Assembly: GCF_035390745.1 (NCBI RefSeq) | Contig: NZ_DAOOUJ010000004.1 | Location: forward strand, 1,375-65,374 | From: Methanosarcina sp. | GTDB lineage: Archaea > Halobacteriota > Methanosarcinia > Methanosarcinales > Methanosarcinaceae | DNA: 64,000 bases | Direction of reading: 5' to 3' | Part shown: one piece after another, positions 55-46,723 of the stretch | How the letters are laid out: each line of letters begins with the position of its first letter | How positions within the stretch are numbered: position 1 is the first letter of the stretch | Translations under genes and position numbers: made by a program | Notes under the pieces: model-generated | What the model saw: only the letters and a program-made list of their open reading frames with translations | What the model was told of the DNA's origin: nothing | Databases searched by the model: none

Positions 55-666
55 ATGACATTTAATTCCCTGAGACCTGTTGCTACGAGAGTTATTGATC
101 CTCTCGCAGATTTCTTCATAAAATATGAGGTCTCACCTGATACGGTTTCCATAGTTTCCCTTATCTGCGCCTTCTTTGCAGGGCTCAGTTTTTACCTTTC
201 TCCTGGATATAAGGAGCTCGTCCTGCTCGCAGGCATCCTTGTTATATTTAATTCTCTTTTCGATGCCCTTGACGGGGTAATTGCACGCAAATCAAACCGA
301 GCAACTCCGAGAGGGGATTTTCTCGACCATGTAATTGACCGCTATTCGGATATTTTTATCATCTGCAGCATCTTTTTTGCAGGTTATGTATCCTGGCAGA
401 TAGGAGTCACGGCAATTGTGGGAGTGCTTCTTACCAGTTACCTCGGGACTCAGGCTCAGGCACTTAATCTCGGAAGATATTACGGCGGAATTATGGGCAG
501 GGCTGACCGTCTCGTAGTGATAATTATTGCAGCTTTTGCCAGCTCAGTTTACTCTGCTTCCATAGCAGGTTTTTCCATTCTGGGCTGGGCTGTCGTCCTT
601 ATTGCTGTAACCAGCCACATTACGGCAGTTCAGAGAATTTTCTATATCTGGAAAAGGCTGGACTGA
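55..666 (+). CDS. CDP-alcohol phosphatidyltransferase family protein (archaetidylinositol-phosphate synthase-like)
   Basis: CDP-OH-P-transferase motif DALDGVIARKSNRATPRGDFLDHVID; several TM segments. Confidence 0.9.
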   Translation: MTFNSLRPVATRVIDPLADFFIKYEVSPDTVSIVSLICAFFAGLSFYLSPGYKELVLLAGILVIFNSLFDALDGVIARKSNRATPRGDFLDHVIDRYSDIFIICSIFFAGYVSWQIGVTAIVGVLLTSYLGTQAQALNLGRYYGGIMGRADRLVVIIIAAFASSVYSASIAGFSILGWAVVLIAVTSHITAVQRIFYIWKRLD

Positions 667-801
667 TACTTTTCAGCTTCTTTTGATTTGAGTATACACA
701 GTTCTCCTGCCGATCCTGCTAAAAATTTTAAACCTTTTTATGCTTTAAAACCGCTTTCTGAAGCGGATAAGTTAATGTAAGACAAAACCCAATACTGGAA
801 T

Positions 802-1242
802 ATGCCGTCTCAAAGAAAAAAGTACGAGTATCTGGAACATACCGCAGATATAAAGTTCCTGGCCTACGGAGATACCCTGGAAGAGGTATTTGAAAACGCA
901 GCTCTAGCCATGTTTAATGTTATCATAGATACTTCAAAAGTCTCGGGAGAGACGGCAAGAGAAATTTCCCTCACATCGCCTGATCTGGAATCTCTACTTG
1001 TGGACTGGCTTTCCGAGCTTTTATATCTTTTTGAGGTGGATGAAGTTATCTTCTGGAAGTTTCAGGTAGAGGAAATCAAGGAAGAAGAAGGAGAATACTC
1101 TATAAAAGCTCTGGCATCAGGCGAACAGTATTATCCTGAAAGCCATCCCTTTGAAACTGAAATTAAAGCTGTCACATACAATCAGCTGGAGCTTGAGAAA
1201 ACTACCGAAGGCTGGAAAGCTCAGGTTGTTGTTGATATTTAA
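802..1242 (+). CDS. Archease (RtcB cofactor)
   Basis: YEYLEHTADI and EIKAVTY motifs, acidic 146 aa, directly upstream of rtcB. Confidence 0.92.
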   Translation: MPSQRKKYEYLEHTADIKFLAYGDTLEEVFENAALAMFNVIIDTSKVSGETAREISLTSPDLESLLVDWLSELLYLFEVDEVIFWKFQVEEIKEEEGEYSIKALASGEQYYPESHPFETEIKAVTYNQLELEKTTEGWKAQVVVDI

Positions 1243-1481
1243 GAATCAGGAATTTTTAGGATTTTTGAAGATTCTATACATCACTTTTATTTATGGCTGT
1301 TATATATGACTGTAGTGTCCGTCTTTTACACAGTCTCAAACACCGTTTTGTCATGTCCCACAGTAATTTGGAGATCACCAGGGAAACATAAGGTACATGA
1401 GTAATTCCAGAATTACATTAATATCAGGATTATAATTTCAAAATTCTATCCACATTATTAAAGGAGTAGGGAGCATCAATT

Positions 1482-2984
1482 ATGGTAGAGAGTGAAGATA
1501 CCTTTGCTGAGGAATCGTGTACGGAAAGTGTGCATAGAGATGCAAGAAGCATGGTCAGAAAACTTTCCGATAATGACTGGGAAATCCCTAAAGGGCACAT
1601 CCCCAATATGAGGGTTCCAGGGCGCCTGTTTGTATCAGAAAACCTGCTTGAAAGCATTGAGCCTGAGACTATTGACCAGATCGCAAATGTGGCAACTCTT
1701 CCTGGCATTCAGAAATATTCCATGGCAATGCCTGATGCCCACCTCGGATACGGGTTTGCTATAGGGGGCGTTGCAGCTTTTGATACCGAAGAAGGGATTA
1801 TCAGCCCTGGAGGGGTGGGCTTTGATATCAACTGTGGTGTGCGGCTTATCCGCACAAACCTTCAAAAAGAAGAAGTAGTCCCTTATATAAAGAATCTGAC
1901 TGATGAGCTGTTTAACAATGTGCCTGCAGGCGTAGGTGCAAAAAGCCGATTCAGAGCCTCTGATAAAGAACTGGACAGTGCTTTTCTTGAAGGTGCAAAA
2001 TGGGCTGTGGAAGCCGGATATGGTGTGGAGGCAGATGTGGAACACTGTGAAGGAAACGGCTTCCTGGAAGGAGCAGATACTTCTCATGTGAGCACAAAGG
2101 CGAGAAAGCGTGGAAAGCCCCAGTTAGGAACTCTCGGGAGCGGTAACCACTTCCTTGAAGTCCAGTATGTGGATGAGATCTATGACCAGAAGGTTGCATC
2201 GGCTTTCGAGCTTGAAGAAGGCCAGGTTACAGTAATGATACACTGCGGATCAAGGGGGGCAGGGCATCAGATCTGTACTGACCACCTGAAAGAGCTTTCC
2301 CAGGCTGTAAAGAAGTACGGGATTGAGATCCCTGATAAGCAGCTTGCCTGTGCTCCTGCTCAGTCAAAAGAAGCACAGAATTATTTCAAAGCCATGCTCT
2401 GTGCTGCAAACTACGCATGGGCAAACAGGCAGATGATAACTCACTGGACAAGAGAATCTTTTGAAAATGTCTTTGGCAGGGACGCTGATGACATGGGAAT
2501 GAGCCTCCTTTATGATGTTGCCCATAATGTGGCAAAACTGGAAGAGCACAGCATTGACGGCATGAAAAAAGAGGTTTATGTGCACAGAAAAGGGGCAACA
2601 AGGGCATTTCCTCCAGGGCATCCGGAAGTTCCTTCCGCATACAGGGATGTAGGACAGCCGGTTTTAATCCCAGGCAGTATGGGAACTCCTTCTTTCATAC
2701 TTTGCGGCGCAAAAGAAGCTATGGACATTTCTTTCGGTAGTGCCTGTCATGGAGCCGGGAGGGTCATGAGCAGAGCACATGCAAAGAAAGAATTCCACGG
2801 GCAGAGCGTAAAAGAGAACCTGGAAGCTCATGGAATCACTGTAAGGGCCACTCATCCGTCCGTAATTGCTGAAGAAGCTCCCGGAGTATACAAGCCCAGC
2901 AGTGAGGTGGTAAATGTTGTGCACGAACTTGGTATTGCCCGTAAGATTGCAAGAGTAATTCCGCTTGGAGTTGCAAAAGGTTAA
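1482..2984 (+). CDS. rtcB: RNA-splicing ligase RtcB
   Basis: MPDAHLGYGFAIGG, GFDINCG, GSGNHFLE, HRKGAT, SACHGAGR motifs. Confidence 0.97.
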   Translation: MVESEDTFAEESCTESVHRDARSMVRKLSDNDWEIPKGHIPNMRVPGRLFVSENLLESIEPETIDQIANVATLPGIQKYSMAMPDAHLGYGFAIGGVAAFDTEEGIISPGGVGFDINCGVRLIRTNLQKEEVVPYIKNLTDELFNNVPAGVGAKSRFRASDKELDSAFLEGAKWAVEAGYGVEADVEHCEGNGFLEGADTSHVSTKARKRGKPQLGTLGSGNHFLEVQYVDEIYDQKVASAFELEEGQVTVMIHCGSRGAGHQICTDHLKELSQAVKKYGIEIPDKQLACAPAQSKEAQNYFKAMLCAANYAWANRQMITHWTRESFENVFGRDADDMGMSLLYDVAHNVAKLEEHSIDGMKKEVYVHRKGATRAFPPGHPEVPSAYRDVGQPVLIPGSMGTPSFILCGAKEAMDISFGSACHGAGRVMSRAHAKKEFHGQSVKENLEAHGITVRATHPSVIAEEAPGVYKPSSEVVNVVHELGIARKIARVIPLGVAKG

Positions 2985-3065
2985 ATCCTGGAAATTTAAC
3001 CTTCTTTTTTATTTTTTCTCAATTTCTTGAACGAGCTGGCTTTTCAGGAATTCTTTGAGTAAATA

Positions 3066-4196
3066 TCATTCTCCTGAAATAAAATCTGGCTCTGTGAATT
3101 CTTCCACTCCATGTATGCCTGAGCTGTCCTCAGGTCCATGTTCCTCATAGAATCTGAAAACTATCATACTCGAATATGAAGAGGTTACAAAAGAAGTGCC
3201 GTTTTCTCGGAATATATTCGAAAAATATTCCACAAGGCTATGGATAACTTTTTCGTTTTTGAAATCATGGAAAATAGTTACTGATTCTTTTCCGGGTTCA
3301 AGGCAGATTTCTATGTTCTTTACCAGCTGGGTTGCCAGGTACATCTTCCTAAAATAATTAAGTAAATCAGGAAGTGACATCTCATTTATTGACTGTTTGC
3401 ACAGGCGTTCCATGATCTTTGTCGGGTTCGGGACATCTCCCGCTGCAAAGGTTTCAAACTGGCTCCTGTGAAGGGTCACAAGATTGTACCTCTCAACATT
3501 GTATGTATACATTAGCTGTGTCCAGAATTCTGTATTGTCGTCAAGTTCTCTGCATACAATGTCAAGGTAACCAAAATGCTTTCGAATCCCTGGCATGGTT
3601 TCATTAGGAGAGACTGACAGGTTCTTTTTGAATGAAATCTGAGTTGAATTTGCACGCCTGAAAATATGTTCTACATCAAGCTGTTTCCATTTTGCCAGAA
3701 AATGGGCTATAAGCTGGGCAAAGAATTCTCTGCTGTTTACTGTGGCATTGGAGAGAAGTATAAGGGCAGATTCGGGGTCCTGTATGTCTTCACATTTTAT
3801 TGAAGTCCTTATTGTCCACTGATTGTTTCTGAAAATCCTGTTCAGATACTCTTCCAGCTCTTTCATATTGTTGATTTCAAAAGGATTGATAAGCTCATTA
3901 ACCAGTTCTTCATCTGTGAGCCTTCCTTTTGTATACCTGAAAAGCCATTCGAGCATTGTTTTATTGATTATTATATTTTCCCCGCTCTTAATCGTGTCAC
4001 TCAGCTCTTCTTTTGCGGGGGTTTCTTTTAAAAATTTAATTGCCTCTTCAATACTTCTATGATACGTAAGTGCTGTATCTGCAATTTCAATTGTGTCCCT
4101 TACTGCAGCGCTAAGATTCCCATCATTGGCATCCAGAAAGAGCTGTAGTTTTTTAAGGTACTTGTCATCAAGGGATATGTTTTTTCTGATCAGCAT
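3066..4196 (-). CDS. Conserved hypothetical protein, N-terminal ribbon-helix-helix-like segment
   Basis: 380-codon ORF; ATG at 4196 preferred over TTG at 4208; RKNISLDDKYLKKL...GNLSAAVRDTIE resembles RHH. Confidence 0.8.
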   Translation of the reverse strand: MLIRKNISLDDKYLKKLQLFLDANDGNLSAAVRDTIEIADTALTYHRSIEEAIKFLKETPAKEELSDTIKSGENIIINKTMLEWLFRYTKGRLTDEELVNELINPFEINNMKELEEYLNRIFRNNQWTIRTSIKCEDIQDPESALILLSNATVNSREFFAQLIAHFLAKWKQLDVEHIFRRANSTQISFKKNLSVSPNETMPGIRKHFGYLDIVCRELDDNTEFWTQLMYTYNVERYNLVTLHRSQFETFAAGDVPNPTKIMERLCKQSINEMSLPDLLNYFRKMYLATQLVKNIEICLEPGKESVTIFHDFKNEKVIHSLVEYFSNIFRENGTSFVTSSYSSMIVFRFYEEHGPEDSSGIHGVEEFTEPDFISGE

Positions 4197-6203: not shown

Positions 6204-6422
6204 TTACATGAACATTGATGATACCGAGACATAGATCAGGAAGAGCAGCAAGCCGATTACTCCGCCATATAATATTCCGATATCTCTTCCTACCTTCTTT
6301 CCGATTCTCTGTGCAACTTCACTGTTGACAAACTCTATCTTTTCATCGATCTTATCGAGCCTTTTCATTACTTCGTTAAATTCGCCTGGCTCTACAAACG
6401 CTGCTGGTGCTTTTCCTTCCAT
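6204..6422 (-). CDS. mtrG: Mtr subunit G
   Basis: KIEFVNSEVAQRIGKKVGRDIGILYG; ATG at 6422 after GAGGTG RBS. Confidence 0.95.
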   Translation of the reverse strand: MEGKAPAAFVEPGEFNEVMKRLDKIDEKIEFVNSEVAQRIGKKVGRDIGILYGGVIGLLLFLIYVSVSSMFM

Positions 6423-6440
6423 ATTATTCACCTCTCAAGC

Positions 6441-6665
6441 TCATAGGCCGACAGCTAATGGGAGTACAACGACCATCAGCAGCGAAAAGATGAAACCTGC
6501 TGCAAAGCCGATTATTCCGGTAGCTGCTACTCCGGAGTCAAGCTTCTGGTTTCTCGCGATCAACTGTGCTCTATATCGAATGCTCTCAACAGTCGCATCA
6601 ATTGCACCCATCTGAGGGGCAAGAACCATTGGGACGCCTTTATCATTTTCTTCTGCCATTCTCAT
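6441..6665 (-). CDS. mtrF: Mtr subunit F
   Basis: [20 protein letters not shown] plus C-terminal TM; operon position (alternative start 6659). Confidence 0.95.
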
Positions 6666-7387
6666 TACCTCCCTAGCAGTAACATCCCAAGCAGGGATAT
6701 GGTTATTGTCAACCCAATCATGGCGCCTTCAATCTTTCCTGCGTGAACTCCTGAGTGGAACTTGTTCAAGTTTCCTATGTCCATCATGCGGGCTTCAATT
6801 GCCTTCAACCTGCTCCGGATAACTGCGATTTCTCCTGAGACCGGTCTGACAACACCGCCTTCTTCTTCTTCTCCACCCTCTTCACTGATTTCCACAATCA
6901 ATGGGTCTGCATCAAAGGCACCTGGGTCTTTTGAAGCGAGTTCTCTCACCTTGGATGTGATGGCACCCATATCTTCGGTATCAAGCAGATTGACAACCTG
7001 AACCTGTTCCTGGAAACGGGCAATTGCGGCTGCATTCAGGTTTTCCACATACGGAATTGCACCCAGTGCACCTGCAATTCTGTTATCTTTTACACCGTTT
7101 GCATGGAGGCTCATCATTGACTGTCCGGTTATGTGCCCCTTAACCTCAGAACCGGTTACAAGCAGATATCTGATGTTCGGGTTTGAGATAATGTGGGCAA
7201 CGACCTTTTCAATACCAAGGTTTTCGGTCTTACAGGACCCGGTACAGGCTGCTCCTGCATCAAGGATTGGCTTTCCTGGAAGGTGTGAACCGCAGGTAAT
7301 TACCAGTACGCAGTTCTTGACATCGCCTACTTCATATTCTCCTTTCAGGATAGGCCATCCTGGGGCTGGTTCTCTCTTGTTTACCAT
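6665..7387 (-). CDS. mtrA: Mtr subunit A (corrinoid-binding)
   Basis: [25 protein letters not shown] and [10 protein letters not shown] (His ligand); C-terminal TM. Confidence 0.97.
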
Positions 7388-7388
7388 T

Positions 7389-7715
7389 TTACACCACCCC
7401 TCCCATCAGTCTTGCTATGTATATAACGAGGGCAAGCAGTCCGCTGAATGCAAGACCTACAACAACTCCGTAAAAGGAGTTTGAGTAAATTCCTGCCATA
7501 TAGGAAGTATTCTCACGGCCTGGCCATGAATTAAGAAGCTGTTTGCTGGGCGAAAGGGAATTTAACAGGTCTTCAGCAATTGCATCCAGCTTGTCTATCC
7601 TCTCAAAGACAGGTTCCATGGAGTACTGAATCGAGTCTTTCCTTTCCTGTGTGACGGTCCCCGATTCCGTGTCCATGACTAAATTTATCTCGGGAGCTAT
7701 GCGAACAATGCTCAT
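7389..7715 (-). CDS. mtrB: Mtr subunit B
   Basis: [24 protein letters not shown]; operon position. Confidence 0.95.
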
Positions 7716-10979: not shown

Positions 10980-11789
10980 GTGATTTTCGGAGCTTCATCT
11001 TTTGCTGGTTCCCTTCAGGAACTGAAGGAAAACGTGGGGTCTGTAGAATTATATGTTCCTAAACTCGGAATTTACAATGGCCTCGTGCTTGAAAAGGAAA
11101 AACTTGAGCGTATTCTTGACGAAATGTCAACACATAATTTCGCAGGGACTGTGCATGCTCCCTACTCAGCGGCAGATCCAAAGTATCCTGAAGCCCTGCA
11201 GATAGATACTGCAAACATGGGAAAAAGAGAATTTTCTCTTCTTGAAGAATCCATGGCAATTGCAAACAGGATAGGATCTCATGTAGTAGTGCTCCACCCT
11301 GGAAGGATCGGCTCCGATAGGGAGAAGTCCTATGCTTCAATGGTCAGCAACCTCAAGTCCCTTGCGTCTCTGGCTGAGGATTACGGAGTTATGCTGGGGC
11401 TTGAAAACAAAGAAGGAACAGACCCCTCTAACTTTTGTTGCAAAGCAGAAGAACTTTCTCATACTATTGAAATTGTGAACTCAGCCAATCTCAAAGCTAC
11501 TCTTGATATCGGGCATGCAAACCTCACCTGTGGGGGCAACCCTGAAAAACTCAGAAACTTTGTCCTGACCTTAAAAAAACATGTTATCCATATTCATCTG
11601 CACGATAACAGTGGGCAGTGGACAGAAAAATATGATGGGGACGAGCATATGGCACCGGGGAAAGGGTGTGTTGATTTTTCTGCCCTAAAAGTGCTTTCAG
11701 ATTACAGAGGTATCTATAATCTGGAAGTCTTCTCTCTGGAAGATGTTCAGCTTGGAAAAGAAGTCGTTAAGAAAGCTCTGCATTCTTGA
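10980..11789 (+). CDS. Sugar phosphate isomerase/epimerase / AP endonuclease family 2 TIM-barrel protein
   Basis: VHAPY, VVVLHPG, LGLEN, ATLDIGHA, IHIHLHDN..DEH metal-ligand motifs. Confidence 0.88.
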   Translation: MIFGASSFAGSLQELKENVGSVELYVPKLGIYNGLVLEKEKLERILDEMSTHNFAGTVHAPYSAADPKYPEALQIDTANMGKREFSLLEESMAIANRIGSHVVVLHPGRIGSDREKSYASMVSNLKSLASLAEDYGVMLGLENKEGTDPSNFCCKAEELSHTIEIVNSANLKATLDIGHANLTCGGNPEKLRNFVLTLKKHVIHIHLHDNSGQWTEKYDGDEHMAPGKGCVDFSALKVLSDYRGIYNLEVFSLEDVQLGKEVVKKALHS

Positions 11790-11862: not shown

Positions 11863-13782
11863 TTAATTAAAGTCTACTTTAACTCCTTTCTGGCCAAGCA
11901 CTTTCTTTAGCTCTTCGTAGGCTGTAAAAAGCTCTTTTCTCTGCCTTTCAGCTGTTTCAAGTTTTGGTTCGGCTTTGAGCCAGATATCCTGATCTCCTGT
12001 TCCTCTTGTAACCGCAACGCAGGCAAGCATATCTCCCTGGGTCAACCTGTATATGGAATCAAGTCCTGTAGGAGTTACCCACGCAGGAGATACGGTTTTA
12101 AGTTTTTCAATCAAATCGTCCCAGATGAGAGTTCCGGATGCCCGGAGGTTAAGCTGAAGGTGGGCACGTTCTCCTGTAACCTTTTCATCAAGTTTTTTAA
12201 GGAATGCGCTGTACTCCGGATCTTTCTCATTTATTTCTCGTGATTCGTAGCGGGCAAGCTCTTCTGCTTCATCTTCGAAAAAGGGTGCCAGGTTAACCTT
12301 GCTTGAGGGTTTTGTCATAAGGGAGACCCCGAAGAAAGCAACGGCACTCAGCCCCATTCCCACGATAACCCCGTGGCTCATCAGAATTGGATGAATGCTT
12401 TCCAGATAATTCGGTGCAAGAGGGGGAGTCTTAATAAGATCCAGAATTACGAGTGCTACCTGGACAACAAAACCGACCACCATCCCTGCAAAGGCTCCTT
12501 CCTTGGTTGCTCTCTTCCAGTACAGGCCTCCCATGAGGGGGAAGAAGTAAGAAGAGCTTGCAATGAATGTTGCGATATGAATAGCATCGATAATGTTGGG
12601 GATGACAAACGAGCCTGCTGTTGCAGCGAGCACTATAAACAGCACGCTGACTCTGTTTATCAGCATCATTTCTTTCATTGTAGCATCTGGCTTTATGTAT
12701 CTCTGGTAAATGTCCCTTGAGATGCAGGAAGCGCCTGATGTTGAAAAAGTGTCCGTACAGGACATTGAGGCTGCTGCAAGCCCTATCGCACTGAAAGCTA
12801 TAATCAGGGGAGCCGAGGCGAAACGTTCACTTACAAAAGCCAGTAATGCGGGCTCTGCCAGAGACATGCCTGCAGGAAAGCCCATCGGGGCAATTTCAGG
12901 GTATATTGAGCTAAGGGCTATTGCAATCACGGCGCAGGATCCAAAGACCACGGTAATCATGAGAGCGCCGATTATCATTCCAAAGCTGGCAGATTTTGCA
13001 TCTCTCGCAGCCCAGACTTTCTGCCAGGGATCCTGTTCTGTAATCCACCCGGGAATTATAGCAAGGCAGAAAATCAGAACCATGGGAAGTCCAATTGATA
13101 AGGGATTCCACCAGTTCGCAGGCAGGCTTCCGAAGAGCTCTGAAGCACTTATCGCAGAAGTACCAAGACCTCCATCAGCAACTGTTCCTACTGCAGCAAA
13201 AGCCATTGCTATTGTAAAGATAGCAAGGAAAGTGAACTGGATAGTATCTGTCCAGATAACTGCATACAGCCCTCCAAGGGTTACGTAAAGGGAAACTGCA
13301 ATTGCAACAATCGCTGCAGCATAGAAAGGATCAAGGCCGTAAAAAACCTGCAGAACAAGGGAAAGCCCTGTAATATCAGCTACTGAAAATAGAATCATTA
13401 CAACAGTAATTATAATGGCAATTGGCCATCTAACTGCACTGCCATAGCGCTGTTCAAGCAGTTCAGGCTGGGTAATTGCAGGCAGATGTTTGATTTTTCC
13501 CACAAGCACCGCAATAACAAGCAGAGCGATGATGTTAGGCGCTACAAAAGCCCATACAGAGCCCATTCCCTGAAGCATGAAATACCCTACAACCGCAAGA
13601 ATTCCGCCTGCTGTCAGCCAGGAAGCTGCAGCTGAAAATCCCAGGGCGCCGGGTCCTATCCGTCTTCCAGCAAGCCAGAAGTCTGTAACTGATTTCTGTC
13701 TGTTATTAAAATACCAGCCAATAGCCACAAGCGAGGCTATATAGACTGCAAGCATTATAAGAAAAATACTGTAACCATCCAT
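11863..13782 (-). CDS. Sodium:solute symporter family protein with C-terminal soluble extension
   Basis: DFWLAGRRIG, YVTLGGLYAVIWTDTIQ, QDPWQKVWAA motifs; about 13 TM segments. Confidence 0.92.
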   Translation of the reverse strand: MDGYSIFLIMLAVYIASLVAIGWYFNNRQKSVTDFWLAGRRIGPGALGFSAAASWLTAGGILAVVGYFMLQGMGSVWAFVAPNIIALLVIAVLVGKIKHLPAITQPELLEQRYGSAVRWPIAIIITVVMILFSVADITGLSLVLQVFYGLDPFYAAAIVAIAVSLYVTLGGLYAVIWTDTIQFTFLAIFTIAMAFAAVGTVADGGLGTSAISASELFGSLPANWWNPLSIGLPMVLIFCLAIIPGWITEQDPWQKVWAARDAKSASFGMIIGALMITVVFGSCAVIAIALSSIYPEIAPMGFPAGMSLAEPALLAFVSERFASAPLIIAFSAIGLAAASMSCTDTFSTSGASCISRDIYQRYIKPDATMKEMMLINRVSVLFIVLAATAGSFVIPNIIDAIHIATFIASSSYFFPLMGGLYWKRATKEGAFAGMVVGFVVQVALVILDLIKTPPLAPNYLESIHPILMSHGVIVGMGLSAVAFFGVSLMTKPSSKVNLAPFFEDEAEELARYESREINEKDPEYSAFLKKLDEKVTGERAHLQLNLRASGTLIWDDLIEKLKTVSPAWVTPTGLDSIYRLTQGDMLACVAVTRGTGDQDIWLKAEPKLETAERQRKELFTAYEELKKVLGQKGVKVDFN

Positions 13783-14042
13783 AAGGACACCTTTATAAGA
13801 ATCAAGTAATTTATGTGAGCATTATCCATTTTTTAGAAGTTTTCCTGAAAATATCAACATTATTCTGGATGACTTTGTTTTTATATATTCTCATCTTACT
13901 AATTATGAATAAGTAAATTTTACTTCAATTCTACTATCTATTTGTTCTCAGAGTGCTTCAAGAACTCCTTTTTGCAAATGGATTCAAGTTAACTTGAGTT
14001 TAACTCATTTTTAGTTTCCTGATTTTTGCAGGCTTTGAGAAC

Positions 14043-14376
14043 ATGTTGAAATACAGAATTGTTTATGCTGACCGCAGGTTTCTGAGTATAGGAACAGGAA
14101 TCGCAATAATTGATGCTTCCAATGTGGCAGAAGCAGGAGACACAGTATATGTCTTTCTGAGGCCTGAAAACATAGCTTTAAGTAAAACTTCCGCACAATC
14201 CAGCATCAGAAACTCTCTGTATGGCAGGGTCACAGAAGTAGGGATACCTGGAGTTCCTGTGCGGGTAAAGGTTGATTGCGGAATCATTCTGAATGTCCTT
14301 ATAACCTGGCAGAAGAGATGAAGATTTCTCTGGGTATCCAGGTCTATTCTCAAGTTCTGTTCATGTTCTCCGTTAA
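14043..14376 (+). pseudogene. 3' remnant of a ModC/WtpC-like ABC ATPase (TOBE domains only)
   Basis: VYVFLRPENIALS..QSSIRNSLYGRVTEV resembles the TupC C-terminus; continues after frameshifts as AEEMKISLGIQVYSQ and SVHVLR*; no Walker motifs; abuts the modE RBS. Confidence 0.8.
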
Positions 14377-14390
14377 GAAGGTGAAAGTTT

Positions 14391-14978
14391 ATGAAAGCGA
14401 AAACAAAGCTCTGGTTTACCGAAGATGGAAAAACGGTAATGGGCGCTGGTAGAGCTGAGTTGTTGAAAACAATTGACGAAGAACGCTCCCTCCGGAAAGC
14501 CTGCCAGAAACTCGGAATCTCTTACAAGCATGCCTGGATGATGCTTAAGAAAATGAATGAAGCTCTCGGCGAGCCTGCGGTAGTTACTGTGCGCGGGGGA
14601 AAGGAACAGGGCACTTTCCTGACCGATCTCGGAAGAAAACTGCTGGTTGAGTATGAAACGAACAAAAAATTGATTAATGAAGCCTTGGGGGACGAAACCT
14701 CCTGGGAAAATGTAAGTTTCAAGCTTTCTGCCCGAAACAAGCTTCCAGGAAAAGTGATTGAAGTTGAAAAAAGCGGGCTTGTCTCGAAAATCACTATTGA
14801 GATTGAACCTTCAGTCCTGACCTCCGTAGTTACGGAAGAAGCAGTTGAAAAACTGGACATAAAGCCCGGAGACCGTGTTTATGCAGTCATAAAATCCACT
14901 GAAGTAATGGTTGCAAAAGCTGCAGGTGAAACAGCGTCTGCAAAAGCCGGTTCGAAAAAGTCTGGTCTCTCAGACTGA
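14391..14978 (+). CDS. modE: ModE-family molybdate/tungstate-responsive regulator (wHTH + TOBE)
   Basis: GAGRAELLKTIDEERSLRKACQKLGISYKHAW HTH; KLSARNKLPGKV...IKSTEVMV Mop/TOBE domain. Confidence 0.92.
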   Translation: MKAKTKLWFTEDGKTVMGAGRAELLKTIDEERSLRKACQKLGISYKHAWMMLKKMNEALGEPAVVTVRGGKEQGTFLTDLGRKLLVEYETNKKLINEALGDETSWENVSFKLSARNKLPGKVIEVEKSGLVSKITIEIEPSVLTSVVTEEAVEKLDIKPGDRVYAVIKSTEVMVAKAAGETASAKAGSKKSGLSD

Positions 14979-15110
14979 ACATTTTTTTAGATCCTGTATA
15001 TTTTTGAAATCTTTAATTCAAGATCTGTAATTAAAAAGGGTTGAGTGCCTGTAAAAATTATATTTACAGACACATTTCTTTCGGGTTGTTCAGTTATACA
15101 GTTTTCCCGT

Positions 15111-16172
15111 TTATTCCTGCATCTGTTTCTTCTTCCTCATCACAACGAAACATGCTGCCAGGATCATTGCAACACCTGCTCCAATTTCGTATCCTGGAAG
15201 CGATTCTTTTGCTTCCAGAACTTCGGTGTTGATTTTAACAGTATCTGAAACCTGATCATGCCCTTCCGAATCTTCATAGAGAATCTCGCTGCTCAGGGAG
15301 TATGGCTTTGGCGTTGCAGTCTCGTCCACATCCATGTCAAAAACAGCAACAGCTTCTTCACCCGGGTTCAAAGTCCCAAGGTAAGCCTGGTCGTCAGTCG
15401 TACTGAATGGGTCAGCTGCACTTAATCTCACAGTTGCATCCTTTGCTGGTTCTTCTCCGGTATTCTTGTATGTAACGCGGAGCATTCCTCCTTCATCAGG
15501 GTAAAGGTCGCCTGTTACATTCGTAACTTCAAAGTAAGGTTCTTCTTTGACTTTTATGTATATGGTTTGAGTCTGAGTCTTGTTTTCGTACCAGATGCCT
15601 ACATCCTTGTTTGTCACAATGCCTGTAGTAGGGTCGTATTCGTCCCCTCCCAGCTGAACATTGTTCTGGTACTGATATGCAAGTTTAAGGGTAAGAGGAT
15701 ATGTTCCTGCAGAAGCGTTTTTATTTATTTCTATGGTGAACTTTGTAGGGCTTGAGCTCTGTTTTCCCTGTTTGAGGGTACCTGCCTGCTGGGCTCCTGA
15801 TTTGACCTTGATATTTGGGTCATCTGACGTAAGGGTTGCAAGAATTCCTACTGCGGTTGTAACCTGTGATTCATACTGCATTTCTGTCTGCTGGAGCACC
15901 AGATCAACAGCTTCCCCAAATTCCACGTCTTTATCAGCCTCAAATCCTGTAATTGTGCCTTTATTCATCATTTCAATATTGAGGGTTACAGTATCTCCTC
16001 TGGAATATTCATTGTCTCCTATGAGTGTCGCATTGATGTCAGGGCTTCCATAGACATTATAATAGTTCTCACTGATGTCAAAATTTTTTGGGAAAGCAGC
16101 CTGCACTGGCAGGACTGCAGAGAAGAGGATCAGAAGGGTTGTGACCGTAGCAAGTAATCCATTTTTATTCAT
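15111..16172 (-). CDS. COG1361 S-layer-family membrane-anchored protein
   Basis: Signal peptide MNKNGLLATVTTLLILFSAVLPVQA; YPLTLKLAYQYQ; C-terminal TM + KKK; start 16172 after GGTGA. Confidence 0.85.
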   Translation of the reverse strand: MNKNGLLATVTTLLILFSAVLPVQAAFPKNFDISENYYNVYGSPDINATLIGDNEYSRGDTVTLNIEMMNKGTITGFEADKDVEFGEAVDLVLQQTEMQYESQVTTAVGILATLTSDDPNIKVKSGAQQAGTLKQGKQSSSPTKFTIEINKNASAGTYPLTLKLAYQYQNNVQLGGDEYDPTTGIVTNKDVGIWYENKTQTQTIYIKVKEEPYFEVTNVTGDLYPDEGGMLRVTYKNTGEEPAKDATVRLSAADPFSTTDDQAYLGTLNPGEEAVAVFDMDVDETATPKPYSLSSEILYEDSEGHDQVSDTVKINTEVLEAKESLPGYEIGAGVAMILAACFVVMRKKKQMQE

Positions 16173-17358
16173 TTTCATCACCTGATGCATTTTCATCGCC
16201 TGGTGTTTTTTCATCGCTTGATACATTTTCATCGCTTGATGCATTTTCTTCATTCCTGGTTCTTTTCCGGTGCATATTCACGATCTGGTAAAGGGCGATA
16301 ACGATAATCAGTATAATTGCTATTCCTGTTGTGCTGAATTTTTTCTCTGTAGCTTCAAGAGGTATGTTCACTTTCATGCTTTCAGAAAACGATGTCTCTC
16401 CGTCTTCATCAACGTATTTTATTTCACTGTTAATTCCGTAGTTTTTTACAAGTGCGTCCTTGTCTGCCGAAATTTCAAAACTTGCAGTTTTCTCTTCTCC
16501 GGGGCCTATGTCCCCAAGCCTTACTATGGATTTCTCAGTGCTCAGGGGGCTCATGACTATTATCCGGGCTAAAGCGTCTTCTGCTACTTCTTCTCTTGTG
16601 TTTTTATAGGTAACATTGATGAGCCTGCTTTCTCCCTGTACAAGGCTTCCTGAGACATTGCTTACTTCAAATTCAGGTCCGCTTTTTACGGAAACGGGGA
16701 TTCTGAGAGTTTCGTTCTTTGTCTCATATACTCTTGCAAATTCCACACCCGTAACCCCGAGATTTATTGCATCCGAAGTTACGGTTTTGACATTAGCCTG
16801 GTACTGGTAACTTACAGGCAGGAGGAGCTCATAATCCCCGGCAGGTGTATCGCTGTTTATTTTGATGGTGTAACTCAGGGTTGACGTATGGCCTGTTTCA
16901 AGTTCTTCTACACTCTGAGGGTTAGATGTGGACTCGACTTCAATGTATTTTGTTTCCGATTGAAGAGTAGCTTCAATATCTTTTGCAGTTGTAACCCCCT
17001 CTTCTTCTTCCATCTCTGCCATTGCAACTGTTTCTTCAGTGGAGTCGTTTATTAGTCTCTGGTTTGCATTCAGCCTCTGAAAACCATCTATTACTCCGGT
17101 GTTTGCGATTTTTATCTTCAGATCTACTGTTTCTCCCCTTGTTAACTCGGGATCTCCTGTCACTGAAGCCTTTATAACCGGCTCTCCGTAACTCCTGTAA
17201 TAGTCTACAGTAGAGCCCTGATCCAGAATAATGAAGTTCGTTTCATCATCGTCCCCGAGGGCTGGAAGTGCAGTCACTGATACAATTAATAGAATTAATG
17301 CAAATGTAGTAACTTTCTTAATCATTTTTTGCCTTAATTTCCCGGGCACTCGTATCAT
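16165..17358 (-). CDS. COG1361 S-layer-family membrane-anchored protein (paralog)
   Basis: Signal peptide MIKKVTTFALILLIVSVTALPALG (alternative start 17325); YELLLPVSYQYQ; C-terminal TM. Confidence 0.85.
   Translation of the reverse strand: MIRVPGKLRQKMIKKVTTFALILLIVSVTALPALGDDDETNFIILDQGSTVDYYRSYGEPVIKASVTGDPELTRGETVDLKIKIANTGVIDGFQRLNANQRLINDSTEETVAMAEMEEEEGVTTAKDIEATLQSETKYIEVESTSNPQSVEELETGHTSTLSYTIKINSDTPAGDYELLLPVSYQYQANVKTVTSDAINLGVTGVEFARVYETKNETLRIPVSVKSGPEFEVSNVSGSLVQGESRLINVTYKNTREEVAEDALARIIVMSPLSTEKSIVRLGDIGPGEEKTASFEISADKDALVKNYGINSEIKYVDEDGETSFSESMKVNIPLEATEKKFSTTGIAIILIIVIALYQIVNMHRKRTRNEENASSDENVSSDEKTPGDENASGDENE
16170..16253 (-). repeat. Imperfect 18-nt tandem repeat (about 4.5 copies, GATGAAAATGCATCAAGC-like)
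   Basis: Reads DENASS/DENVSS/DEKTPG/DENASG in one frame and MKMHQA-type units in the other. Confidence 0.9.
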
Positions 17359-24840: not shown

Positions 24841-25004
24841 TTAATACAAGCGTGCTGTAGCTTAATGACCCCAAGTAATAAATAATGTAGTCTAACTTTC
24901 TAATCCTCTGTCCAATTGCCCGTACTTTTTTCCAAATATTTCCGCAGCGACTATTTTCTAATTTTTTTTGTAAGATTAGTAATAAATAACTTGAGAACCG
25001 TGTC

Positions 25005-25028
25005 CGTTATGTTCAAATATACATTTCT
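25005..25028. promoter_or_regulatory. Putative ModE box upstream of tupA
   Basis: CGTTATGT-tcaaatat-ACATTTCT; same spacing as the perfect box at 35571. Confidence 0.7.
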
Positions 25029-25056
25029 AACAAAATACTATTTTATGGAGAAGAGT

Positions 25057-26004
25057 ATGAGAAGAGTATTTTTTATTTTGATAATTCTGCTTAGCGTGTT
25101 CCTTGCAATAGGATGCACAGGTACCGAACAGCAACTAAATACTACTACAACGCAACCGAATACCACAGAGACTACGGAACCGGATACTGCCACAACCTCA
25201 CAATCAGACGCGTCAAAACTAATAGTTTCTACTACAACCAGTTTAGAAGATACAGGGCTTTTGGAAGAGATAGAGGCAGCATTTGAAGAAAAATATCCTG
25301 GAGTAGACGTGCTGGTTATATCCGGAGGTACAGGCATAGCCTTACAATACGGTGAAAGAGGAGATGCTGATGTTCTTCTTACTCATGACAAAAGCCGGGA
25401 AGAAGAATTTGTAAGTAATGGATTCGGTACAAACCGTACGGAAATAGCATATAATTATTTCTGGATAGTGGGGCCTGAAAATGATCCCGCAGGAATAGAA
25501 GACCTTAACGCTACAGAGGCATTTAGCAAGATAATGGAAGAGGGTCAAAACAATTCCGATCAGGTTAAATTTGCATCCCGCGGAGACGACTCTGGTACAC
25601 ATGCAAGGGAGAAAAAAATCTGGGAAAGTACTGGTGTAAGTTATGGTGAAGTTAACAGTTCGGGCGAGTGGTACATTGAAAGCGGCAGAGGTATGGGAGA
25701 AACCCTTTTACTTGCCAATGAACAGAATGCTTATACCTTAACTGACTCTGGAACATTCCTTGCATATACTAACGGTGGAAGGATCGAGATTGTACCAATA
25801 GTAACAACGGGCGATGAACTGCTTAATGTTTATGCAGCTATGCCAGTGAATCCAGAAAAACATCCAAATGTTAATTATGAAGGGGCTCAAAACTTCGTAG
25901 ATTTCCTTATTTCTCCTGAAGGGCAGGAAATAATCGGAAACTATGGCAAAGAACAATATGGGCAACCTCTTTTTACTCCTATATCTGAGGGTTTGCCATC
26001 CTGA
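25057..26004 (+). CDS. tupA: Tungstate ABC transporter substrate-binding lipoprotein
   Basis: STTTSLEDTGLL (TTTS signature), FASRGDDSGTH; lipobox LAIGC; ATG 25057 after GGAG. Confidence 0.92.
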   Translation: MRRVFFILIILLSVFLAIGCTGTEQQLNTTTTQPNTTETTEPDTATTSQSDASKLIVSTTTSLEDTGLLEEIEAAFEEKYPGVDVLVISGGTGIALQYGERGDADVLLTHDKSREEEFVSNGFGTNRTEIAYNYFWIVGPENDPAGIEDLNATEAFSKIMEEGQNNSDQVKFASRGDDSGTHAREKKIWESTGVSYGEVNSSGEWYIESGRGMGETLLLANEQNAYTLTDSGTFLAYTNGGRIEIVPIVTTGDELLNVYAAMPVNPEKHPNVNYEGAQNFVDFLISPEGQEIIGNYGKEQYGQPLFTPISEGLPS

Positions 26005-26116
26005 GGATGGATTAAACCCTTAATTATTTTTTAGCCAAAAACTCGAAGAACCTGAAATAAGCGCATAAACTATAAGATCACTAAATTACAAGGTGTATCA
26101 AAGTTCAGGTGGTCGT

Positions 26117-26806
26117 TTGAATGAAATTATCCAGGCAATTTTTCAGGCAATAGAACTAATCATAGAGCTTGATCCCAAATTGATCCAGATAACGAAATTA
26201 AGCCTTTACATTTCGTTAACTGCAACACTCATAGGTTCCTTAATAGCAATTCCCATCGGTGGAATTATCTACTACTATGAATTTTGGGGAAAACGCTCCA
26301 TAATAAATCTCATTCAAACCCTTTACAGCGTTCCTACAGTTCTGGTAGGGCTTTTTCTTTTCCTGCTGATTTCCCAGCAGGGCCCTTTCGGGTTTTTAAA
26401 ACTTCTTTTTACCCCCACCGGAATGATAATAGGGCAGATACTGCTGATACTGCCTCTTCTTATCGGATTTACTATCACTGCTCTTGTCGGGGTCAGCACC
26501 CAGATAAAAGAATTGGCGATATCTCTGGGAGCCAGCACTTATCAAACCATAATCACCATCATAAAGGAAGCTCGTTATGCTATAATGGGCACTGTTATAC
26601 TTGGTTTTGGAAGGGCCATCTCAGAAGTGGGAGTTGCTATACTTATTGGGGGCAATATCAGAGGTTTTACAAGAACATTTACAACTGCCATATCCCTTGA
26701 AACTTCCAGAGGTAATCTGGTACTTTCAATAGCATTAGGATTTATACTTCTTTCTCTTTCTCTAATTATCAATTTACTATTGAATTATCTGCAGGGTAAA
26801 GATTAA
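26117..26806 (+). CDS. tupB: Tungstate ABC transporter permease
   Basis: FGRAISEVGVAILIGGNIRGFTRTFTTAISLE; TTG start after GGTG. Confidence 0.92.
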   Translation: MNEIIQAIFQAIELIIELDPKLIQITKLSLYISLTATLIGSLIAIPIGGIIYYYEFWGKRSIINLIQTLYSVPTVLVGLFLFLLISQQGPFGFLKLLFTPTGMIIGQILLILPLLIGFTITALVGVSTQIKELAISLGASTYQTIITIIKEARYAIMGTVILGFGRAISEVGVAILIGGNIRGFTRTFTTAISLETSRGNLVLSIALGFILLSLSLIINLLLNYLQGKD

Positions 26807-26868
26807 TTGTATCCTCTTCAAATTGAGTGGAAAGCTTTCTTCAATAAAAAGTTAGCTCAGGTTTAACG

Positions 26869-27930
26869 ATGCACATAGTAGAATTGGAAGAAATTTACAA
26901 AAATTATGGAAATCTCCAGGTTCTAAAGAATATTAACCTGCAAATAGAAAAGGGAACCAGCACTGCTCTTGCTGGACCGACCGGCTCTGGAAAAACTGTT
27001 ATGCTCAGATTAATTGATTTACTGGAAAAGCCGTCCTCCGGAACTGTATATTTTGAAGGTGCCGATGCTAATGAATCCAGTAAAACCCGGCTGAATATAA
27101 GAAGGCAAATTGGAATGGTTTTCCAGAAGCCTCTTGCTTTTAAAGCAAGCGTTTATGACAATATTGCCTATGGTTTGAAAGTGAGGGGAATAAAAGAGAA
27201 TATGGACGGGAGGATTAAAGAACTCCTTGAGCTGATTGGACTTCCAGGTTACGAGAATAGAAATGCTCTTAAATTATCTGGGGGGGAAACTCAAAGGCTT
27301 GCACTTGCACGGGCAATGATTACGGATCCTGAGCTGCTATTGCTGGATGAACCAACTGCAAATCTTGATCCTATCTCTAAAAAGAAACTGGAAGAACTGA
27401 TCCTGAAAATTAATCGCGAATCCGAGACAACCGTGATAATGACCACTCATGACCTTTTACAGGGCCAGAAGCTTGCAGACAGGATGGTTTTACTTTATAA
27501 TGGCCAGATCCTGCAGTCCGGAACGCCTGATCAGATATTTAGAAAACCGAAAAACAGATTTGTGGCTGATTTTGTTGGCATTGAAAATATAATGAGCGGC
27601 AGTATTGAGAGCAGTTCAAACGGTTTAGCAAAGATAAAAACAGGTTCCATAACTGTATTTGCCGTAACGGAAAAAGAAGGTGAAGTTCATTTTTCTATCA
27701 GGCCTGATGAAATAACAATATCCAGGGAAAAGGTACAGACCAGTGCCAGAAATACAATTCAGGGTAAAGTTAATGAAATAATCGACACCGGATCACTAAT
27801 AAAGCTGTTAGTGGACACCGGTGAATTGTTCACCGTTTTTATAACTCGCGAGTCCCTTAATGAACTCAATATTTCTATCGGAACCAGTATCTGGTTATAT
27901 TTTAAAGCGTCTGCTGTTCATGTATTTTAA
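26869..27930 (+). CDS. tupC: Tungstate ABC transporter ATPase with C-terminal TOBE domains
   Basis: GPTGSGKT, LSGGETQR, LLLLDEPT; TSARNTIQGKV TOBE. Confidence 0.9.
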   Translation: MHIVELEEIYKNYGNLQVLKNINLQIEKGTSTALAGPTGSGKTVMLRLIDLLEKPSSGTVYFEGADANESSKTRLNIRRQIGMVFQKPLAFKASVYDNIAYGLKVRGIKENMDGRIKELLELIGLPGYENRNALKLSGGETQRLALARAMITDPELLLLDEPTANLDPISKKKLEELILKINRESETTVIMTTHDLLQGQKLADRMVLLYNGQILQSGTPDQIFRKPKNRFVADFVGIENIMSGSIESSSNGLAKIKTGSITVFAVTEKEGEVHFSIRPDEITISREKVQTSARNTIQGKVNEIIDTGSLIKLLVDTGELFTVFITRESLNELNISIGTSIWLYFKASAVHVF

Positions 27931-35478: not shown

Positions 35479-35502
35479 CGTTATGTTGGAATTTACATAA
35501 TT
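35479..35502. promoter_or_regulatory. Putative ModE box 1 upstream of fmdE
   Basis: CGTTATGT-tggaattt-ACATAATT. Confidence 0.75.
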
Positions 35503-35570: not shown

Positions 35571-35594
35571 CGTTATGTTTATTTGAACATAACG
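35571..35594. promoter_or_regulatory. Putative ModE box 2 upstream of fmdE
   Basis: Perfect CGTTATGT-ttatttga-ACATAACG palindrome. Confidence 0.85.
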
Positions 35595-46224: not shown

Positions 46225-46671
46225 TTACTCTCTTTTTCTGAAAGCCACTTTTTCCCCGCAGTACTGGTGCAGTTTCTTAGTGCCTCCAGCCTCGCTGACC
46301 ACCGTAAGCATTGTTAAGGGATCAATAATTCTGGTCCCCATTATTGCAGTAATACCTCTACTGAAGAACGGGGCAGGGTAAAGAGGCGCGCTTGGACCCA
46401 GCAGGACAACTTCCCCTGCTGCACCCCGGAATGAAATAAGTTCGTCAAAAGTCCGGTTGGCGAGGGTACTTGCACTGAGAATAATCACATCCGACGCGGG
46501 GATAATCTCTTTTGCTTTTTCCGATGGGATAATCGTGGTTTGAGGTGATTCTATTTCACGCTTTTCAAGGACAGTAAGTTTATCTGTAATTTTCAGGATT
46601 TTCGGAACGAGAGGCCCGAAATAGCCTACCATTGCAACCCTGTCTTCTGGTTTTATAAGGTCAATTTTCAC
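46225..46671 (-). pseudogene. DUF364-like Rossmann domain, apparently N-terminally truncated
   Basis: VAMVGYFGP, SDVIILSASTLANRTFDELI, VVLLGPSAPL; 148 aa, weak GTG start, no RBS. Confidence 0.6.
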
Positions 46672-46699
46672 TCAAAAATCTCTTAAGATAGAATTTCAA

Positions 46700-46723
46700 T
46701 GATATGTCTGAACACACATAACG
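46700..46723. promoter_or_regulatory. Putative ModE box upstream of the DUF364-like gene
   Basis: TGATATGT-ctgaacac-ACATAACG (14/16 match). Confidence 0.7.

Follow-up and report, generated by a model that had tools for sequence, protein, structure and literature searches.

A deleted Wtp-type transporter operon upstream of modE in Methanosarcina and a candidate modE control element in its remnant

In the stretch of Methanosarcina DNA analyzed here (the window, 64,000 nucleotides [nt] of a 3.37-Mb genome in 142 contigs), an intact modE gene is preceded by the tail end of an ABC ATPase gene and nothing else of a transporter. What stood upstream of modE, and how often has it been lost in the genus? 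Why was the regulator kept? And what accounts for the piece of ATPase gene that remains in front of it? A first-pass annotation had proposed that the transporter operon was deleted and the regulator retained, and this much stands, given that modE follows ABC transporter genes both in relatives and in M. acetivorans (MA0283). The identity of the transporter and the distribution of the loss prove to be different from what had been supposed, and the tail probably has a significance of its own. The features discussed below are collected in Table 1.

Table 1. Features of the window, and portions of the intact reference locus (L017) kept in deleted lineages
Feature	Coordinates	Strand	Basis or remark
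mtr operon	5.2-10.2 kb	-	
TIM-barrel gene	10980-11789		
Sodium:solute symporter (SSF) gene, conserved left flank	11863-13782	-	Pfam SSF, E 7.8e-35
Spacer between SSF and modE	13783-14390		608 bp
First ~241 nt of ancestral SSF-wtpA intergenic region, kept	13783-14027	+	blastn to L017 positions 1-241, 83%
Deletion junction, 3-nt TTT microhomology	14025-14027	+	two BLAST segments overlapping there
wtpC (modC-like ABC ATPase) pseudogene tail, codons ~227-348	14025-14376	+	
92-aa ORF inside wtpC pseudogene	14043-14321	+	gene-finder call
Conserved ~50-nt block GAAAACATAGCTTTAAGTAAAACTTCCGCACAATCCAGCATCAGAAACTC	14166-14218	+	proposed modE promoter or leader element
TATA-like TTTAAGTA in block	14177-14184		~210 nt upstream of modE start codon
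modE, intact, 195 aa	14391-14978	+	winged-helix DNA-binding domain and single Mop/TOBE domain
Two S-layer-like genes, then RND transporter gene			downstream of modE
Tup-like tungstate-type ABC transporter (binding protein, permease, ATPase)	24916-27930	+	
Two exact ModE boxes before fmdEFACDB	35480-35501, 35572-35593	+	motif scan
Second deletion scar	46225-46722	-	junction 46664/46665
148-aa ORF, DUF364 domain only	46225-46671	-	
ModE box, 1 mismatch	46701-46722		motif scan
Kept in window	reference 1-241, then 3221 to end		
Kept in L013 (M. hadiensis)	reference 2-347, then 3331 to end		
Kept in L018	reference 3-456, then 3077 to end		
Kept in L016	reference 1-226; 3022-3090; 3332 to end		
Kept in L025	reference 1-226; 3029-3090; 3326 to end		
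Kept in L043	reference 1-240; 2715-2783; 3330 to end		
Kept in L032	reference 7-157; 447-575; 2833-2997; 3338 to end		
Kept in L039	reference 96-142; 499-705; 3344 to end		
Kept in L028, L036, L037	reference 3067, 3185, 3131 to end, respectively		nothing else kept
Kept in L035, L038			tiny fragments

The wtpABC deletion and its remnant

The slot between the SSF gene and modE holds intact wtpA-wtpB-wtpC in 21 other Methanosarcina genomes. In a DNA search of 40 related genomes, many matched the query as two segments with about 3 kb between them, and directly 5′ of modE in relatives are genes for a 272-amino-acid (aa) permease and a 348-aa ABC ATPase. A ModE-anchored scan of 34 Methanosarcina or Methanosarcinaceae loci, with flanks of up to 10 kb, gave a single gene order throughout (TIM-barrel gene, SSF, wtpABC where present, modE, S-layer-like gene; 34/34), with wtpB and wtpC intact in 21 loci and present as remnants in 13, and SSF lies upstream of wtpA or of the scar in every locus of the genus that extends that far. 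In a metagenome contig of the same species (L076, positions 490-2392), the SSF gene is called as two genes, of 206 and 441 aa; either the allele is disrupted or, perhaps, the sequence contains an error. On the other side of modE, the interval 15111-17358 (minus strand) encodes two tandem paralogous secreted or S-layer-like proteins of 380 and 397 aa with faint NPCBM_assoc/CARDB matches, the first of which has a repetitive MK(M/K)HQAMK N terminus and ranges from 355 to 380 aa among assemblies.

As the intact reference, we used L017 (Methanosarcina sp. DH2), in which 3,603 nt separate the start of SSF from the start of modE. Local BLAST segments pair window positions 13783-14027 with reference positions 1-241 and window positions 14025-14388 with reference positions 3221-3601; about 2.98 kb (reference 242-3220) is missing, comprising the wtpA-proximal half of the intergenic region with its ModE operator, wtpA, wtpB, and wtpC codons 1 to ~226. 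The lost system belongs with WtpABC and not with the classical ModABC that the first-pass annotation had named: in this relative, the binding protein is a WtpA (474.6 bits vs a cut-off of 355), the permease is WtpB-like (300.7 bits vs 340), and the ATPase is WtpC-like (415.6 bits vs 440). The expectation that modE was the last gene of the transporter operon holds for its position, with the ABC genes directly upstream in relatives, but the operon is of the Wtp rather than the ModABC type.

The WtpABC system has its origin in Pyrococcus furiosus. It is a tungstate/molybdate ABC transporter (Bevers et al. 2006, as cited in PMC12327845), and the relatives' genes at this locus match NCBIfam WtpA (above the cut-off), WtpB, and WtpC, with WtpC also the best match of the remnant. 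Of such a transporter, however, the window encodes no working component at this locus, the binding protein, the permease, and the nucleotide-binding domain all being absent. The closest described counterpart is in M. acetivorans, in which the gene for ModE (MA0283; bioRxiv 10.1101/2021.06.03.447018) comes after those of a WtpABC-related ABC transporter for molybdate/tungstate (Chanderban & Lessner 2025, PMC12327845). That WtpABC-like/ModE locus is the same one, between the mtr and fmd operons, where the first-pass annotation had placed it. In contrast to M. acetivorans, the window has lost the three transporter genes along with the ModE operator, and the last third of wtpC is a pseudogene.

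How much of wtpC is left? A tblastn search with the WtpC of an intact relative aligned window positions 14025-14312 with residues 227-322 at 72% identity, and the remnant as a whole stands at 72% amino acid identity to intact WtpC versus about 85-90% for neighboring genes. The first-pass annotation had placed the start of the remnant at 14043, which is only the first ATG, with homology to wtpC extending from 14025. Its description of a degenerate TOBE tail ending before the modE ribosome-binding site (GGTGA, 14380-14384) was accurate, but the “several frameshifts” come down to two deletions, of 7 nt after 14308 and of 10 nt after 14350. A premature stop lies at 14319-14321, past which three-frame translation shows TOBE-like sequence going on in another frame, and the ancestral wtpC stop lies at ~14374-14376, which leaves 14 nt between it and the start codon of modE (14391). 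The remnant lacks the nucleotide-binding domain (Walker A, Walker B, and ABC signature), with no ABC_tran match and homology only from residue ~227 of 348, and it lacks a complete C-terminal TOBE domain in one frame, covering positions 1-28 of the 64 in the TOBE profile. Genes for a WtpA-type binding protein and a WtpB permease are absent from 13783-14390.

Taken together, these observations leave us with next to no doubt that there is a deletion and a pseudogene at this locus. An ancestor of the species had wtpA-wtpB-wtpC-modE between the SSF symporter gene and the S-layer-like gene; a deletion of ~2.98 kb on the 3-nt microhomology took the ModE-controlled wtpA promoter/operator, wtpA, wtpB, and the first ~226 codons of wtpC; and the leftover tail then decayed through the two frameshifting deletions, the premature stop, and a fall in identity to 72%. 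Could the gap instead be an artefact of assembly or binning, given that the genome is a 142-contig draft? We consider the chance of this negligible. Twenty-two contigs from other assemblies encode an identical ModE, and all six of the independent metagenome contigs that were fetched (ENA, JGI) carry the same 608-bp spacer with 0-2 mismatches; the scar is thus fixed in a widespread species. Moreover, the remnant has frameshifts and substitutions of its own, and analogous scars occur in complete genomes, e.g., M. hadiensis.

Recurrent loss in the genus and retention of modE

The first-pass annotation treated the loss as a peculiarity of this strain, while recognizing that relatives might also lack the transporter here. 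Neither extreme applies. Among 35 distinct sequences from the genus (ModE-anchored loci plus loci from the DNA search, duplicates removed), the operon is deleted in 14 and intact in 21; the loss is fixed in the species of the window and recurs across the genus. The fragments retained differ among the deleted lineages (Table 1, in L017 coordinates). On a maximum-likelihood tree of the locus, built from codon-aligned SSF, TIM-barrel, and modE genes, the best tree has seven state changes, at least five of which are forced by well-supported branches, and intact and deleted loci occur as sisters (L030/L032, support 100/100; L029/L039, 98/90; L024/[L028, L037], 98/99). The locus is intact in the outgroup genus. 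For the window's own 13-row clade, the AU test of a single clade of deleted rows gave a P value of 0.045, in a group that was named after the tree had been seen. We regard it as very likely that independent losses have recurred in the genus; one ancient deletion, followed by different erosion and by re-acquisition through recombination, would be the less likely alternative.

Has modE itself been affected? It has an open reading frame in all lineages compared, and its domains are recognizable here by Pfam TOBE (57.9 bits vs 22.3) and HTH_1 (28.8 bits vs 26.6) and by TIGR00638 (65.1 bits vs 55), with TIGR00637 at 61 bits, under its cut-off of 98.5. The two tandem Mop domains of the E. coli type were not found in this protein, which has one TOBE stretch and reaches 59 bits vs 369 for NF007957. 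In this respect it is like the ModE of M. acetivorans, which also has a winged helix and a single Mop domain (PMC12327845). The E. coli modABC/modE locus likewise places a molybdate-uptake operon beside the regulator, with the operator overlapping the transporter promoter, but E. coli ModE has two Mop domains and its gene is divergently transcribed, whereas here modE lies downstream in the same orientation, encodes one Mop domain, and outlives the transporter. Mean pairwise dN/dS values for modE are 0.090 in deleted and 0.082 in intact lineages. Thus, modE is under purifying selection in both groups, and its low dN/dS in deleted lineages indicates that it has been maintained after loss of the transporter.

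What, then, is modE kept for? We scanned both strands of the window for the published ModE motif, RTTATGT-N8-RCATAAY, allowing up to two mismatches, and found seven sites, i.e., 14 both-strand matches versus 2.4 expected; none of 100 shuffles reached 14. The fmd operon is intact in the window, in line with the first-pass annotation, which had also noted that a Tup-type ABC system remains. Two of the boxes, both exact, precede this operon. The same RTTATGT-N8-RCATAAY boxes precede fmd in M. acetivorans, for which two ModE sites are listed at ma0304-0309, the counterparts of the fmd boxes here (Table 1 of PMC12327845). In that organism, the nitrogenase operons vnf and anf are under ModE repression, and ModE also binds ahead of vht and of iron-transporter operons; its sites before Mo transporters and fmd are predicted (PMC12327845). 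From the exact boxes at fmd and the M. acetivorans targets, modE is retained under purifying selection as a regulon-wide regulator, and its maintenance independently of the adjoining transporter fits such a role. Loss of a single transporter would not be expected to take with it a regulator that serves so many targets.

The adjoining transporter would have been part of that regulon. A ModE box lies directly before wtpA in all 14 intact loci scanned (in L017 at 7088-7109, abutting the wtpA start codon), so that the modE-adjacent Wtp operon is a predicted ModE target, one that is absent from Table 1 of PMC12327845. The box is lost in 11 of 12 deleted loci, the window included, and no ModE box with up to two mismatches occurs in 13783-14390. 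Because both the box and the wtpA-proximal promoter region are gone, modE cannot be transcribed from the wtpA promoter here.

A candidate modE control element in the wtpC tail

Where might modE be expressed from instead? The wtpC tail was probably kept on account of a conserved element 5′ of modE, a possibility that the first-pass annotation did not raise. No deleted lineage has lost the final ~260 bp of wtpC. In 13 deleted loci, homology resumes 18-295 nt upstream of the block listed in Table 1 (18-36 nt in eight of them) and never inside it, these points being the ends of BLAST segments and not proven junctions. Mean pairwise identity in the block is 84% in the 14 deleted lineages, versus 38-66% in its flanks, and no ORF over the block is conserved among them. 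An independent test, which makes no use of the deleted lineages, comes from synonymous codons in the 21 intact wtpC genes: normalized entropy falls steeply at one place only, codons 276-295, where values of 0.225-0.25 (mean of the gene, 0.52) are below those of the Walker and signature motifs. Two lineages carry changes within the block, a 1-nt deletion in L038 and, in L028 (Methanosarcina sp. UBA5), a 14-nt tandem duplication (GAGAACATAGTT…) ~230 nt 5′ of modE, between the ACATAG and TAAGTAA parts of the block. The duplication would amount to a natural spacing variant of the proposed element.

Several features temper the assignment. As a TATA box, TTTAAGTA is imperfect and lacks a clear purine-rich BRE beside it, and the block is at its most invariant further downstream. 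Because the block encodes SKTSAQSSIRN, a conserved TOBE motif, part of its conservation in deleted lineages may date from the time when it was coding. Conservation of the block was not found in the outgroup genus. Two other readings can be set aside. Gene conversion does not account for the conservation, as neither the window nor any of the loci has a second copy of the block; and, by inspection, the block is not a ModE half-site, since its ACATAGC is not matched by another half-site at the proper distance.

What is known of related archaea is compatible with a promoter at this position. The modE transcript of M. acetivorans is unresponsive to Mo or fixed nitrogen (PMC12327845), which fits a modE promoter separate from the ModE-repressed wtpA promoter. 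In the related genus Methanolobus, 24% of 5′ untranslated regions (UTRs) are longer than 150 nt and transcription frequently starts within genes, and long 5′ UTRs are reported for M. mazei (PMC5378194). The gene-internal promoters of Methanolobus in the 3′ ends of upstream genes (PMC5378194) likewise combine a dually constrained coding region with a long 5′ UTR; unlike those starts, the candidate element here comes from comparison, through synonymous constraint and survival after gene loss. In total, we lean, by a modest degree, towards a modE promoter or leader that lies within wtpC and has the block as its core. In this model, the last ~260 bp of wtpC would hold cis-information for modE expression, transcription would start near 14205-14212 and give a leader of ~180 nt, and deletions reaching into the block would be removed by selection.

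Is there a simpler explanation? The tail could be a neutral scar, with deletions that happen to stop there, slow decay, and a block conserved only through the former TOBE motif. That the block does encode SKTSAQSSIRN speaks for this view, as does the young look of several remnants (e.g., L018, at 83% aa identity with one frameshift). Nonetheless, we think it unlikely: the synonymous sites of the block are constrained in the 21 intact genes beyond any other part of wtpC, the block is the best-preserved piece in the oldest and most decayed remnants (L035 and L038), and it has been lost in none of 13 deleted loci. To a similar degree, we find it improbable that the block is some other nucleic acid element, be it an operator bound by a different regulator, an antisense promoter, or an element that acts as RNA within a longer transcript. 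Archaeal repressors often bind downstream of the TATA box, which is where the most invariant part, CACAATCCAGCATCAGAAACTC, is situated, and the minus strand is also TATA-like (TTTACTTAAA). However, Rfam has no match to the block (a scan of 13700-15100 returned two hits at chance level, E ~0.8), the sequence 5′ of the block differs among deleted lineages and offers no shared upstream promoter for a common RNA, and the sequence downstream on the minus strand is equally variable, which argues against an antisense promoter.

A further alternative is that the 92-aa ORF, which spans the block, is the gene of a functional stand-alone small TOBE (molbindin-like) protein, a reading that would have overturned the first-pass annotation. 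The ORF is ATG initiated, appears among the called genes of six metagenome assemblies, and matches WtpC residues 260-321 (NCBIfam NF040840, E 2.4e-8), with weak, partial matches to Pfam TOBE_2 (19.7 bits vs a cut-off of 21) and TOBE (17.8 vs 22.3). Yet it covers only the first 28 of 64 profile positions before running out of frame, and the other deleted lineages have no conserved ORF that corresponds to it. In these, the frame over the block varies from 14 to 128 aa; seven of 14 have no start codon upstream of the block, with no start at all in L013, L008, L036, and L038 and a start only downstream of the block in L002, L028, and L032; and the L028 duplication and the L038 deletion both fall inside the block. 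We reject the stand-alone gene as highly improbable. The 92-aa ORF is an accidental reading frame within the pseudogene and should be labeled a pseudogene fragment.

With these rivals weighed, we favor as reasonably probable the explanation as a whole, i.e., a deletion, a modE gene that was kept, and a tail that would be needed for modE expression. A broader claim can be put forward only tentatively, and we hold it to be rather less probable than its converse: that the 3′ end of wtpC is of dual use and contains a genus-specific promoter/control element of ~50 nt, whose upstream boundary would be mapped within ~20 nt by at least five independent deletions, in a species that shed both of the ModE-controlled uptake systems of the region while keeping ModE, the fmd boxes, and a Tup-type transporter. 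Even so, the repeated deletions and the synonymous constraint point to a precise candidate modE control element, one that would be cheap to test.

A second loss and the remaining Tup-like transporter

The window has lost a second uptake operon, which the first-pass annotation did not mention: a true modABC-modD set is deleted. In the relative L069, modA, modB, modC, modD, and a DUF4213/DUF364 gene come after a flavodoxin-like gene that the two loci share. Window positions 47537-46665 correspond to L069 positions 1465-2352 and window positions 46664-45474 to L069 positions 6395-7557, i.e., a clean deletion of 4,042 bp that took modA-modB-modC-modD together with the 5′ portion of the DUF4213/DUF364 gene. 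The scar fuses the ModE operator and the start of modA to the C-terminal half of the DUF364 gene, and the 148-aa DUF364 ORF should be labeled a deletion-fusion product. Short DUF364 homologs without the DUF4213 domain (148-192 aa) also occur in other assemblies.

Two ModE-controlled uptake operons are thus gone from the 64-kb window, and the transporter remaining there is Tup-like only. The Tup-like set scores 192 bits for TupA, 170.5 for TupB, and 341 for WtpC in NCBIfam, all under the equivalog cut-offs. Homologs of its binding protein are 295-327 aa long and are named tungstate binding by their sources at the protein level; based on these lengths, the gene probably begins near 25.05 kb, downstream of the TTG listed as its start at 24916. 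Just upstream of that probable start, at 25006-25027, is a ModE-like box with two mismatches, its left half-site intact and its right half-site degenerate (GTTATGTTCAAATATACATTTC).

What do these losses mean for the organism? The first-pass annotation had suggested that Fmd may be supplied through Tup, that it may use W, or that another mod copy may serve it. Besides the modE-adjacent Wtp-like set, M. acetivorans has the Mo/W transporters MA0325-27, MA1235-37, MA2280-82, and MA3902-03. Taken alone, the loss is ordinary gene loss in a genus with several redundant Mo/W transporters. A species without two ModE-regulated systems, and with a Tup-like transporter and fmd, is nonetheless a natural genotype for asking which metal, Mo or W, is used in Fmd. 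If the account given here is correct, it would offer a natural test of whether a “Mo-type” Fmd (cf. M. acetivorans ma0304-0309) can be served by tungsten.
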